Part shown: positions 36,641-39,254 of the stretch, in pieces
Position numbering within the stretch: position 1 is the stretch's first letter
How the letters are laid out: every line of letters begins with the position of its first letter
Origin: a virus
Reading direction: 5' to 3' (one strand)
DNA: 64,000 nt
Virus record (IMG/VR): IMGVR_UViG_3300047550_002723
Location: 1-64,000 of that record
The notes under the pieces: model-generated
What the model was told of the DNA's origin: nothing
Database searches by the model: none
Seen by the model: only the letters and a program-made list of their open reading frames with translations
Made by a program: the position numbers and the translations under genes

Positions 36641-38645
36641 ATGACTGCTTCTATTGCACAACGCAATTCTACTAACCCATGGGAATCTTTTTGCCAGTGG
36701 GTTACTTCTACCGACAACCGACTTTATGTGGGGTGGTTCGGTGTTCTGATGATTCCTTGTCTGCTTGCTGCTACGACTTGCTTCATCATCGCATTCATCG
36801 GTGCTCCCCCAGTGGACATTGATGGTATTCGTGAACCCGTTGCTGGTTCACTCATGTATGGAAACAACATCATCTCTGGTGCTGTTGTTCCAAGTTCAAA
36901 TGCTATCGGTCTGCATTTATACAATATTTGGGATGCAGCAAGTCTTGATGAATGGCTCTACAATGGTGGACCTTATCAACTTGTAGTATTTCACTTCCTC
37001 ATCGGCGTCTTCTGCTACATGGGTCGTGAATGGGAACTTTCTTACCGTCTTGGTATGCGTCCCTGGATTTGCGTAGCATACTCTGCACCTGTTGCTGCTG
37101 CTACTGCTGTATTCCTTGTGTATCCTTTCGGTCAAGGAAGTTTTAGTGACGGAATGCCTTTGGGTATTAGCGGAACTTTTAACTACATAAACTAAACCAA
37201 TGTGTAGTATAAATCGGGTGAACTGCTGGAAACCTAAGTCCTTTATGGATACGGCAATCAGCATCCAAGACACAGACGATACTTCTGTGTAAGGTTCAGA
37301 GACTAGTCGGTTTTCCAAGCGTGGAATGTAATACGACACTAGCGCCCGACAACCTTTTATGATATAATGTTTATCCAACCCTTCCATATATAACTCATAA
37401 GTTGTATAAATAGTATAAGGTAAATGGGGATAAACAAATGACTGATATTGACGCCGCTTGGTTAGCGGGACTTTTAGAAGGTGAAGGTTATTTTCAAATA
37501 ACTAAACCAAAACCTAATCATCCAACACAAGTTCTTATTAGACTATCAATGACTGATAAGGATGTTGTAGAAAAGGCATCAAAACTTCTAAATGTTCCTA
37601 TTAACTGTAAAGCAAAAACTACTGAAAAAAAGACTATCTATTCTATTAGTTTAAGTAGAAAAGATGATGTAGAAAAAGTTCTTTTACAAATACTTCCTCA
37701 TATGGGTAGTAGAAGAAGTGAAAGAATAACTGAATGCCTTGAAACTATTACAGAAAGACGAAAAGTTCTTTCTGAAACAAGACGAGAGCAACAAGTTAAA
37801 GCGGCAAAAATCAGATGGGAAAAAGTAAAAGGTTGATGATATAGTCCAATCCCTATGGAAACATAGGTTCCTCGTTCTGCTTAATAGGTTGGTTTTCCAA
37901 GCAGAACACAACATCCTTATGCACCCATTTCATATGATGGGCGTAGCGGGTGTCTTCGGTGGTTCACTGTTCAGTGCAATGCACGGTTCTCTGGTTACTT
38001 CCTCGCTGGTTCGTGAAACCACTGAGAACGAGTCTCAGAACTATGGTTACAAGTTTGGTCAAGAAGAAGAGACTTATAACATCGTTGCTGCTCACGGTTA
38101 TTTCGGACGCCTTATTTTCCAATACGCTTCCTTTAATAACTCCCGTTCGCTGCACTTCTTTCTCGCTGCTTGGCCCGTTGTCGGTATCTGGTTCACCGCT
38201 CTTGGTGTTTCTACGATGGCTTTTAACCTCAATCGTCGGGGTCCCGTCCTAGCAATTTGACGGTAAACTTTGGGTGAATTGCTGGAAGCCCTCCTAAATG
38301 GGTAATCAGCAGCCAAGCCACAGACGCTTCTGTGGAAGGTTCAGAGACTAGGTGGTTTCCCAAGCGTGGGATGTAATACACCAATAGCGCCCAACATCCC
38401 TCTGGGATGAAGATATAGTCCTCTCCTTAAAGATGGTAAATTTAAGGAAACAGAGTAACGGTTTTAATTTCAATCAATCACTACTTGATAGTCAAGGTCA
38501 TGTGATTAACACTTGGGCTGATGTTCTTAACCGAGCAAATCTTGGTTTTGAAGTGATGCATGAAAGAAATGCACATAACTATCCTTTGGATCTTGCAGCC
38601 GTTGAAGCAACACCAGTTGCTCTTACTGCTCCCACAATCGGTTGA
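36641..38645 (+). CDS. psbA: Photosystem II D1, three exons: 36641-37188, 37888-38229, 38456-38645 (359 aa spliced)
   Basis: Splicing restores ..[14 protein letters not shown].. and ..[12 protein letters not shown]..; 548+342+190=1080 nt in frame. Confidence 0.96.
37189..37887 (+). mobile_element. Group I intron 1 of psbA (699 nt, within codon M183)
   Basis: P1 ACTACAT/GTGTAGT with U.G at splice site; P10 AAACCAA/TTGGTTT; core AACTGCTGGAAA, AATCAGCA, GTTCAGAGACTA, GATATAGTCC; terminal G. Confidence 0.93.
37438..37836 (+). CDS. Intron-encoded single-motif LAGLIDADG homing endonuclease
   Basis: [22 protein letters not shown]; TATAAATA at 37405-37412. Confidence 0.88.
38230..38455 (+). mobile_element. 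Group I intron 2 of psbA (226 nt, ORF-less, within codon L297)
   Basis: P1 ACCT/GGGT with U.G; core AATTGCTGGAA, AATCAGCAG, GTTCAGAGACTA, AAGATATAGTCC; terminal G. Confidence 0.92.
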
Positions 38646-38651
38646 TGAAAT

Positions 38652-38679
38652 TAGAGACCCTTTACGGGTCTCTTTTTTT
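38652..38679 (+). terminator. psbA terminator
   Basis: AGAGACCC-tttac-GGGTCTCT + T-run. Confidence 0.85.
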
Positions 38680-38732
38680 GTACTATAATGGTGTTTAAGA
38701 TTTTATAAATAGTTAAAAGATTAAACACCATA

Positions 38733-39254
38733 ATGAGAACCACGAAGATTTGTAGAACCTGCACACAAGAACTTCCTATCTCCGATTTTAGAGAAGGTCG
38801 TAGAAGGTGTATGAGATGTGAAGAAAAAACTTATGCTGAAAACTGGGCAAGTAAAACTCACATTATCTGTAATAAGTGTGGTGTAGAAAAACTCATTTCA
38901 GAGTATTATAAAGGGCACAAGAGATGTAAAGAGTGCTATAGTAAAGATTATAAGGATAAAAAACCTTCTTATGATGATAAGAAGGATTATATGCTAAAGT
39001 ATACTTATGGTGAAGATTTTGGTTTGGAGCAATATAAAAACATTCTTCAAGAACAAAATGAAGTGTGTGCTATTTGCCTAAATCCAAATACTAATGGTAG
39101 AAAGGATAGTAACAATCTCTATGTTGACCACAACCATAATACTGGAAAGGTTCGTGGATTACTTTGTAGTAACTGTAATAGAATGCTTGGTATGGTTGGA
39201 GATAATATCAGCACACTAACTAATGCAGTTAAATACCTACAAAAGCATCAATAA
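38733..39254 (+). CDS. Free-standing Endonuclease VII-type homing endonuclease (F-CphI-like position)
   Basis: CAIC..LYVDHNHNTGKVRGLLCSNCNRMLG; two N-terminal Zn-finger repeats. Confidence 0.88.
   Translation: MRTTKICRTCTQELPISDFREGRRRCMRCEEKTYAENWASKTHIICNKCGVEKLISEYYKGHKRCKECYSKDYKDKKPSYDDKKDYMLKYTYGEDFGLEQYKNILQEQNEVCAICLNPNTNGRKDSNNLYVDHNHNTGKVRGLLCSNCNRMLGMVGDNISTLTNAVKYLQKHQ

Follow-up and report, generated by a model that had tools for sequence, protein, structure and literature searches.

An interrupted viral psbA locus

We analysed the psbA locus of IMG/VR virus record IMGVR_UViG_3300047550_002723. The window, meaning the whole stretch of DNA that was analysed, comprises the first 64 kb (positions 1 to 64,000) of this 74,981-bp contig, which is estimated to represent ∼32% of a genome. 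Judging from its sequence, the contig comes from a T4-like cyanophage of fresh water that has not been cultivated and that is syntenic with S-SRM01. The locus contains, in order, genes for a ferredoxin, psbA, an EndoVII-type protein, a 53-aa open reading frame (ORF), an LpxH-like phosphoesterase and an HNH protein, which matches the gene order of the freshwater Synechococcus myovirus S-SRM01. In the DNA runs that contain the psbA stretch, the sampled habitats are freshwater, riverine and lagoon. The psbA gene, which encodes the photosystem protein D1, is divided into three exons by two group I introns and is followed by a free-standing endonuclease gene:

36641–37188, + strand: psbA exon 1, codons 1–182 and 2 nt of Met183 (Pfam Photo_RC, E 5.8e-49; spliced translation)
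37189–37887, + strand: group I intron 1, 699 nt, after psbA nt 548 (Rfam alignment; P1 and P10 read from the sequence)
37438–37836, + strand: LAGLIDADG homing endonuclease gene, 132 aa, with the single motif LAGLLEGEG, in L8 of intron 1 (Pfam)
37888–38229, + strand: psbA exon 2, codons 183–297, both ends partial (Pfam Photo_RC, E 1.9e-31)
38230–38455, + strand: group I intron 2, 226 nt, ORF-less, after psbA nt 890 (Rfam, 79.7 bits)
38456–38645, + strand: psbA exon 3, codons 297–359 and stop, containing an uninterrupted F-CphI-type site (spliced translation)
38733–39254, + strand: free-standing endonuclease gene of the F-CphI family (EndoVII motif, ‘DHHRN’), 173 aa, here called type A (PF02945, E 3.6e-22)

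Joined, the three exons form 1080 nt that encode a D1 protein of 359 aa with zero internal stops. Its numbering coincides with standard D1 numbering (H190 and H198 are in place). The coding sequence is broken after nt 548 (Met183, AT|G) and nt 890 (Leu297, CT|T), each time 2 nt into the codon. Exon joining thus confirms the original prediction of introns at codons 183 and 297 with exact frame restoration to 359 aa, and Pfam agrees with it that one intron bears an ORF, the other does not, and a free-standing EndoVII-type gene lies downstream.

Ribozyme anatomy and the LAGLIDADG gene

Both introns possess the complete anatomy of a group I ribozyme, and the exons are intact. The U.G pair at the splice site in P1 and the terminal G that had been described for each intron are present (G at 37887 and 38455), and all core motif strings quoted earlier were found in both. 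P7 reads GACUA/UAGUC in intron 1 and is the same in intron 2, and both introns carry a P7.1/7.2 extension. The helices, all on the + strand, are located as follows:

Intron 1, core P3–P7: ∼37214–37349, with P7.1/7.2 at 37306–37337 and the P7 3′ strand at 37842–37846
Intron 1, P8 arms: 37351–37359 and 37826–37834
Intron 1, P9: 37852–37867; terminal G: 37887
Intron 2, P1: 38226–38230 with 38238–38242
Intron 2, P2: 38244–38248 with 38259–38263
Intron 2, P3: 38270–38276 with 38388–38394
Intron 2, P6: 38318–38324 with 38329–38335
Intron 2, P7: 38346–38350 with 38416–38420; P7.1/7.2: 38351–38384
Intron 2, P8: 38395–38399 with 38405–38409
Intron 2, P9: 38425–38431 with 38441–38447; terminal G: 38455

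Intron 1 matches the Rfam model Intron_gpI (RF00028) over the full model span with 43.9–47.9 bits (E 6e-9 to 1e-12). It stays below the gathering score of 50 because of a 465-nt insertion in L8, the ORF region. Its P1 (6 bp) pairs exon CUACAU (37183–37188) with GUGUAG (37202–37207), with the U.G at the splice site. It is abutted by a 7-bp P10, in which AACCAAU (37195–37201) pairs with exon GUUGGUU (37888–37894), both helices sharing the guide sequence at 37195–37207. P1 and P10 are intact in all copies of intron 1 that were compared, and these copies are too alike for a covariation test.

Intron 2 passes the gathering score (79.7 vs 50 bits). RNAalifold of 17 introns at the same site recovered P1, P2, P3, P4/P5, P6, P8 and P9. 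P1 (5 bp) pairs ACCU/C with GGGGU, and its pairs A-U, C-G, C-G, U.G and C-G are invariant in all 17. Seventeen of the 61 predicted pairs, in P2, P3, P5, P6, P7.2 and P9, have changed on both sides and are still paired. P10 is present, though weaker and offset relative to that of intron 1.

The ORF in L8 of intron 1, whose 3′ end overlaps the 3′ strand of P8, exceeds the Pfam cut-offs of both PF14528 (LAGLIDADG_3; 32.2 bits, cut-off 22.5) and PF00961 (LAGLIDADG_1; 23.9 bits, cut-off 23.1). In 29 relatives, the motif LAGLLEGEG and its acidic residues E14 and E16 do not vary. An AlphaFold model with a mean predicted local distance difference test (pLDDT) score of 90.7 shows an alpha-beta-beta-alpha-beta-beta-alpha fold, and its best matches in the PDB are I-CreI, I-CvuI and I-MsoI (template modelling score ∼0.65, probability 1.00). 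Relatives of 131–133 aa with 63–98% identity form more than 45 metagenome clusters, and the ratio of non-synonymous to synonymous substitution (dN/dS) is ∼0.3, at low divergence. Deposited phage genomes contain no copy of this protein (best match 45%). A chloroplast or cellular kinship was considered and rejected, as the relatives found are viral and metagenomic only; among 185,579 prokaryote genomes there is a single match, at 30% identity.

A recombining family of psbA introns

To place the two introns, psbA was mapped in S-PM2, S-CBWM1, S-SRM01 and 50 IMG/VR or metagenome loci, the latter obtained via either endonuclease or a pattern bridging both introns. Group I introns were found after nt 179, 230, 276, 317, 548, 645, 649, 750, 890, 1002 (in S-PM2) and 1008, so that the intron family occupies at least 11 sites in phage psbA. 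Interrupted genes are nevertheless rare: they make up only two of the 145 complete viral psbA genes in a sample for which an intact region around codon 334 was the sole selection criterion.

The original prediction had called the two cores near-identical, implying a common origin or a transposition within the gene. Near-identity is not borne out, as the cores share 79% identity over 139 nt. The core of intron 1 is nearer to the site-276 intron of S-SRM01 (90% over 118 nt) and to introns at sites 645, 750 and 317, and that of intron 2 is nearer to site-1008 introns (88% over 133 nt). Introns at the same site in different contigs are 75–100% identical. Each core therefore has closer kin elsewhere, which speaks against a direct jump, and what remains of the earlier suggestion is a shared family with exchange of modules. 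The exact P7.1/7.2 module of intron 1 also occurs in the site-890 introns of three contigs (L011, L012 and L033) and, one base off, in a fourth (L039). Introns at different sites have therefore recombined. Site-890 introns have two alternative P7.1/7.2 modules (alignment columns 136–170; window 38351–38384), one of them S-PM2-like. The P6 stem of intron 2 in the window is identical to that of intron 1, and compensated changes set it apart from the stem in most other site-890 introns. These comparisons support the view that both introns are members of one recombining family, and do not support a recent jump within the gene.

Intron 1 has spread recently. Its 5′ core is 97.7–100% identical in five other contigs (set L045–L050), whose psbA exons are 77–84% identical to those of the window, and the intron, whose I-CreI-type LAGLIDADG gene is intact, is 98–100% identical across phages whose exons are ∼20% diverged. 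Near-identical introns in diverged exons point to recent spread between genomes. Site 548 is occupied together with the same LAGLIDADG gene in seven other viral contigs. All intron-bearing alleles share the 3′ exon sequence GTTGGTTTTCCAAGC, which pairs with the guide, whereas intronless alleles read CTTGTN...CAG, in the context ...AACTACATGCTTGTATTCCAGGC.... This contrast fits both co-conversion and a requirement for P10. That intron 1 forces a change in D1 (Tyr182) was rejected, since FNYM is also present in intronless alleles.

In three distinct metagenome contigs (L053/L056, L054 and L055), the intron at site 548 carries an HNH gene and no LAGLIDADG gene in L8. In L055 (1661–2543), this gene encodes 220 aa and lies upstream of the core. 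The ribozyme of the HNH-type introns is related to that of the LAGLIDADG type, and the exon flanks are identical. We read the difference as an endonuclease-gene swap inside one intron lineage.

Intron 2 is, by comparison, the older of the two. A site-890 intron is found in ∼30 other viral contigs, and its copies are 75–96% identical between phages.

The novelty of the arrangement had been made dependent on the two sites not being catalogued together. We found neither a deposited phage genome nor a paper with an intron at psbA nt 548 or 890, but the three contigs with HNH genes, which are public, hold both, always together with a third intron and with the HNH gene in place of the LAGLIDADG gene. 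Phage psbA genes with several introns have already been deposited, namely those of S-CBWM1 and, by our mapping, S-SRM01, and it is the combination described here that is, as far as these comparisons reach, new. The most heavily interrupted gene that we mapped, in L049 (IMGVR_UViG_3300032271_000996, 1675–5354), has at least five interruptions (∼nt 179, 317, 548, ∼650 and 750). Two of its introns contain LAGLIDADG genes that are 38% identical to one another.

The EndoVII-type endonuclease and its putative target

The type A gene starts 88 nt past the psbA stop, a placement that is shared by 31 type A loci, S-PM2 and S-SRM01. PF02945 (Endonuclease_7) matches residues 96–171 of 173, the C-terminal 76 residues. 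Among named proteins, type A is closest to F-CphI and to the homing endonuclease of S-SRM01; identity to F-CphI is 45% in the alignable part (39–45% overall range). D132, H133, H135, R141, N149 and the cysteine pairs C112/C115 and C145/C148 are invariant with respect to F-CphI and relatives. Type A is 31 aa longer than F-CphI, with ∼30 extra N-terminal residues that include an added zinc-ribbon-like CxxC...CxxC. Deposited phage genomes contain no type A gene (best match 39%). With a dN/dS of 0.04–0.08 at a proportion of synonymous differences (pS) of up to 0.58, and with no broken copy among the ten compared, the gene is evidently under strong purifying selection.

F-CphI cuts intronless psbA (PMC6083498; the substrate is given in its Table S3). 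If type A has kept this specificity, its target would be the F-CphI site at codons 333–336, which is uninterrupted in the window, and its own copy of psbA would be protected by synonymous AGA-AAT recoding. We tentatively prefer this target over the alternative at nt 890, and would call it nearly an even matter whether it is the true one. In the window, Arg334 is encoded by AGA (38565–38567, at the F-CphI insertion site), and the other 10 psbA arginine codons are CGN. All type A loci without an intron at 1002 or 1008 have AGR at this position, and loci with the 1008 intron mostly have CGG or CGC. Among CGN-preferring psbA genes in IMG/VR that lack an intron at 1002, an EndoVII-like gene follows 10/19 AGR334 alleles and 4/31 CGN alleles (Fisher p 0.004). 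As a simple marker of a neighbouring endonuclease AGR334 was discarded: over all alleles the association is weak (13/101 vs 5/98, p 0.08), and it is significant only in CGN-preferring genes. Neighbouring EndoVII-type enzymes may impose synonymous CGN-to-AGR recoding of Arg334 on psbA, as a mark of immunity.

Alternatively, type A may have moved to a new site and recognise the intronless sequence around nt 890 (AACCT/YAAYGG). Intron 2 would then split the target and protect the phage, and type A would mobilise an ORF-less intron by collaborative homing, as F-CphI does at nt 1002 of S-PM2. The 890 intron is present in 25/27 scorable type A loci, with at least eight intron architectures, vs 4/14 other loci. 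The type A loci without it (L028 and L035) read AATTTGAAT and AATCTTAAT instead of AACCTNAAC at the site, and the N-terminal half of the enzyme, which is presumed to bind DNA, differs from F-CphI, with the extra CxxC pair. However, some 890 introns are accompanied by an F-CphI-like enzyme of 145 aa (L054, L055) or by no endonuclease (L053/L056), the AATTTG variant is also found in loci without type A, the counts are inflated by kinship of the loci, and the AGA at Arg334 is left unexplained. We consider this alternative a serious contender, but an unlikely one.

An improbable third explanation is that the EndoVII-motif protein is a housekeeping recombination enzyme, whether a junction resolvase of the gp49 type or a nuclease that has been domesticated, and that the introns are independent passengers. 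Very strong purifying selection over deep divergence would indeed be unusual for a selfish endonuclease gene, and the 74,981-bp contig contains no second EndoVII-motif gene. As the contig covers only about a third of the genome (∼32%), a true resolvase may lie elsewhere. In resolvases of the T4 endonuclease VII type, an N-terminal catalytic domain precedes a C-terminal domain for dimerisation and junction binding; the type A motif is C-terminal and ends two residues before the stop. Following the published definition of the F-CphI/DHHRN family and the domain placement that separates resolvases from homing endonucleases, a C-terminal motif behind zinc-ribbon-like motifs marks a protein as a member of the endonuclease clade rather than a resolvase (PMC6083498). 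Moreover, the closest named relatives are homing endonucleases, and the gene, where present, always follows directly on psbA, and most phage contigs with psbA lack it.

Splicing and expression

The predicted spliced junctions are AACTACAT/GTTGGTT and TTTAACCT/TAACGGT. We compared 36500–39300 with the contigs of one DNA run and of three metatranscriptomes. The RNA contigs are dominated by other psbA genes, whose exon-exon joints have FNFMIV or CTTGTA flanks, and they cover a 97% variant of intron 1, which may represent unspliced RNA, excised intron or DNA carry-over. In the best-matching metagenome (DNA run X1), a contig joins 38229 directly to 38456, with a shorter side of 21 letters. We rejected this joint as evidence of splicing, as it occurs exactly only in the DNA run and indicates an intronless DNA allele; alleles with and without intron 2 probably occur side by side in that sample. 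In a related system, the S-PM2 intron, splicing is efficient and light-dependent in infection (PMC5931967).

That one or both introns have ceased to splice and psbA is a decaying pseudogene is very improbable: the metatranscriptome contigs lack a window-like exon joint and intron 1 falls under the gathering score, but three stop-free exons encode a full-length conserved D1, ribozyme helices are kept via compensatory changes, P1 and P10 are intact in every copy, and the S-PM2 relative splices efficiently in infection (PMC5931967).

Candidate expression signals around the genes are:

36439–36468, + strand: sigma-70-like promoter candidate upstream of psbA (TTGACA, 18 nt, TATGAT; 11/12; consensus scan)
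36507–36602, + strand: PhotoRC-II RNA motif within the 5′ leader of psbA (full-length match to Rfam RF01717 at 86.4 bits vs a gathering score of 39)
37405–37412, + strand: TATAAATA ahead of the LAGLIDADG gene
38653–38681, + strand: intrinsic-terminator-like hairpin and T run after psbA (8 pairs, 5 of them G-C, T7 tail)
38688–38731, + strand: 11-bp inverted repeat before the endonuclease gene (38688–38698 with 38721–38731; minimum free energy −17.1 kcal/mol)

The regional total of sigma-70-like sites is at chance level, so that the promoter at 36439–36468 is a lead only. An antisense promoter like the CfrI of S-PM2 was likewise sought and not supported, promoter-like matches being at chance level. 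The loop of the 11-bp repeat contains TATAAATA (38704–38711), and its 3′ arm stops 1 nt short of the endonuclease ATG. This hairpin is more stable than expected (z −4.6; 0 of 200 shuffles fold as well), and every type A locus has it. Transcripts that start inside its loop are predicted to be unstructured. The endonuclease is probably translated only from a late transcript starting inside the start-masking hairpin, as in T4 I-TevI. A start-masking hairpin for the LAGLIDADG gene was not supported (z 0.66), and TATAAATA is not enriched in the window (8 found vs 5.8 expected).

A proposed model of intron and endonuclease mobility

As a whole, the locus is likely to be best explained as a two-intron psbA that combines a mobile LAGLIDADG intron with an F-CphI-family neighbour. 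Both introns would self-splice from the psbA transcript, so that D1 would require two group I splicing events. A dimer of the LAGLIDADG protein would cut intronless alleles around ...AACTACATG/CTTGT... and drive the homing of intron 1. The EndoVII-type enzyme would cut within the 3′ part of psbA in alleles that lack the endonuclease, and repair would then transfer the endonuclease gene to the recipient together with the linked intron 2. If the target lies at codon 334, intron 2 would hitch-hike by co-conversion.

Several observations weigh against this interpretation. Intron 1 lies under the Rfam gathering score, and no exon-exon joint with window-like sequence was found in the contigs of the three metatranscriptomes. 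AGR334 is common without an endonuclease (88/101 AGR alleles), and five CGN alleles have an adjacent endonuclease. The association counts are drawn from related contigs and are hence not independent. The combination of CGN with the 1008 intron could be the co-conversion flank of that intron rather than a sign of immunity. Finally, the link between type A and intron 2 may be plain vertical co-inheritance, because the synonymous divergence of type A matches that of the psbA exons.

No photosystem protein is turned over more rapidly than D1, and the copies carried by cyanophages keep photosynthesis going in infected hosts. Its synthesis here would depend on two ribozymes, and gene callers will therefore split psbA and under-count viral psbA. 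The mapped loci form a natural series, in which psbA genes carry from one to at least five related introns at 11 sites, two endonuclease types have been swapped at one site, and a diverged F-CphI paralogue is present. This series allows tests of the movement of ORF-less introns, of shifts in endonuclease specificity, and of the ways in which a host gene gains immunity, be it by an intron or by synonymous recoding. The known workings of such elements are unchanged by the locus.

Other features of the window

At 17331–17608, a split tRNA gene that ARAGORN does not call contains the third group I intron of the contig (17358–17552; Rfam, 64.6 bits). The intron adjoins a match to the abiF RNA motif (17291–17327), and an HNH ORF follows downstream (17659–18129). 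A further HNH endonuclease ORF (123 aa; 40921–41292), 1.7 kb past the EndoVII-type gene, has a syntenic counterpart in S-SRM01. A wcaG RNA motif (Rfam, 89.7 bits) is found at 22837–22934, upstream of sugar-pathway genes.

Comparison with known systems

The psbA intron of S-PM2 and F-CphI reportedly constitute a case of collaborative homing (attributed to Zeng, Bonocora and Shub, 2009; PMC6083498). S-PM2 resembles the window in having an ORF-less group I intron that belongs to the sequence family of intron 2 and, directly downstream of psbA, a free-standing EndoVII-motif gene with TATAAATA ahead of it. It differs in that its intron lies after nt 1002 (codon 334), where the window is uninterrupted, and the window has a longer and diverged enzyme and a second, ORF-bearing intron. 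The original prediction had cited this single ORF-less intron as background, and that picture is incomplete: apart from the different S-PM2 site, S-CBWM1 has two annotated psbA introns and S-SRM01, by our mapping, three.

In S-CBWM1 (MG450654; cited in PMC8557907), as in the window, the upstream of two annotated group I introns contains an endonuclease gene and the downstream one is ORF-less and 72% identical to intron 2. However, these introns lie at ∼nt 649 and ∼nt 1008–1014 rather than 548 and 890, no EndoVII-type gene follows, and the phage belongs to a different genus. The freshwater S-SRM01 (PMC8557907) is the closest deposited relative by synteny, and its psbA is also split. Its interruptions at nt 276, 750 and ∼1002 have none in common with the window, and its endonuclease is F-CphI-like and 142 aa long, vs 173 aa for type A. 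The S-SRM01 record and paper treat psbA as fragments with one suspected intron (PMC8557907); the region (MW015081.1, 207378–209800) is annotated as two partial D1 genes and an endonuclease. Our mapping indicates one gene with three group I introns, at nt 276 (910 nt, with an endonuclease ORF), nt 750 (209 nt) and ∼nt 1002 (∼198 nt).

T4 I-TevI is controlled by a late promoter and a hairpin that hides the start region. The type A gene resembles this T4 td arrangement in the predicted presence of a T4-late-promoter-like TATAAATA in a stable hairpin, the 3′ arm of which lies right before the ATG of the endonuclease gene. The LAGLIDADG gene has TATAAATA but no significant masking hairpin.

In structure, the intron 1 protein is best matched by I-CreI, the homodimeric LAGLIDADG enzyme of a Chlamydomonas chloroplast 23S rRNA intron, with which it shares the single LAGLIDADG motif and the fold. 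However, I-CreI has ∼153–163 aa, vs 132 aa with a long C-terminal helix in the window, and identity is 13–16%. By sequence, the nearest proteins are small viral LAGLIDADG proteins and not I-CreI.

Like its phage counterpart, green-algal chloroplast psbA is an insertion hot spot: it harbours many group I introns, with genes of the LAGLIDADG, HNH or GIY-YIG type. The psbA of the Oedogonium cardiacum chloroplast contains ten, after nt 179, 276, 384, 408, 525, 548, 570, 645, 754 and 898 (PMC2442088). When the listed positions are compared, 4/11 phage sites (179, 276, 548 and 645) coincide with Oedogonium sites to the nucleotide (∼0.1 expected, P ∼4e-6). Site 890 is missing from the Oedogonium list (nearest 898), and further chloroplast lists beyond those of Oedogonium and Floydiella have no entry at 890. 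For the Oedogonium intron at 548, the list gives the type IA1 and an HNH gene in L5, whereas that of the window bears P7.1/7.2 and has its LAGLIDADG gene in L8. The HNH protein of the site-548 intron in L055 is ∼50% identical to putative HNH homing endonucleases of the chloroplasts of Oedocladium, Scotinosphaera and Staurocarteria. Within phages, introns swap both ribozyme modules and endonuclease genes. It is possible, although we lean slightly towards doubt, that the mobile group I introns and homing endonuclease genes found in cyanophage psbA and in green-algal chloroplast psbA come from a single shared pool. If the exact sharing of sites reflects true descent, it would link the mobile elements of phages with those of plastids.

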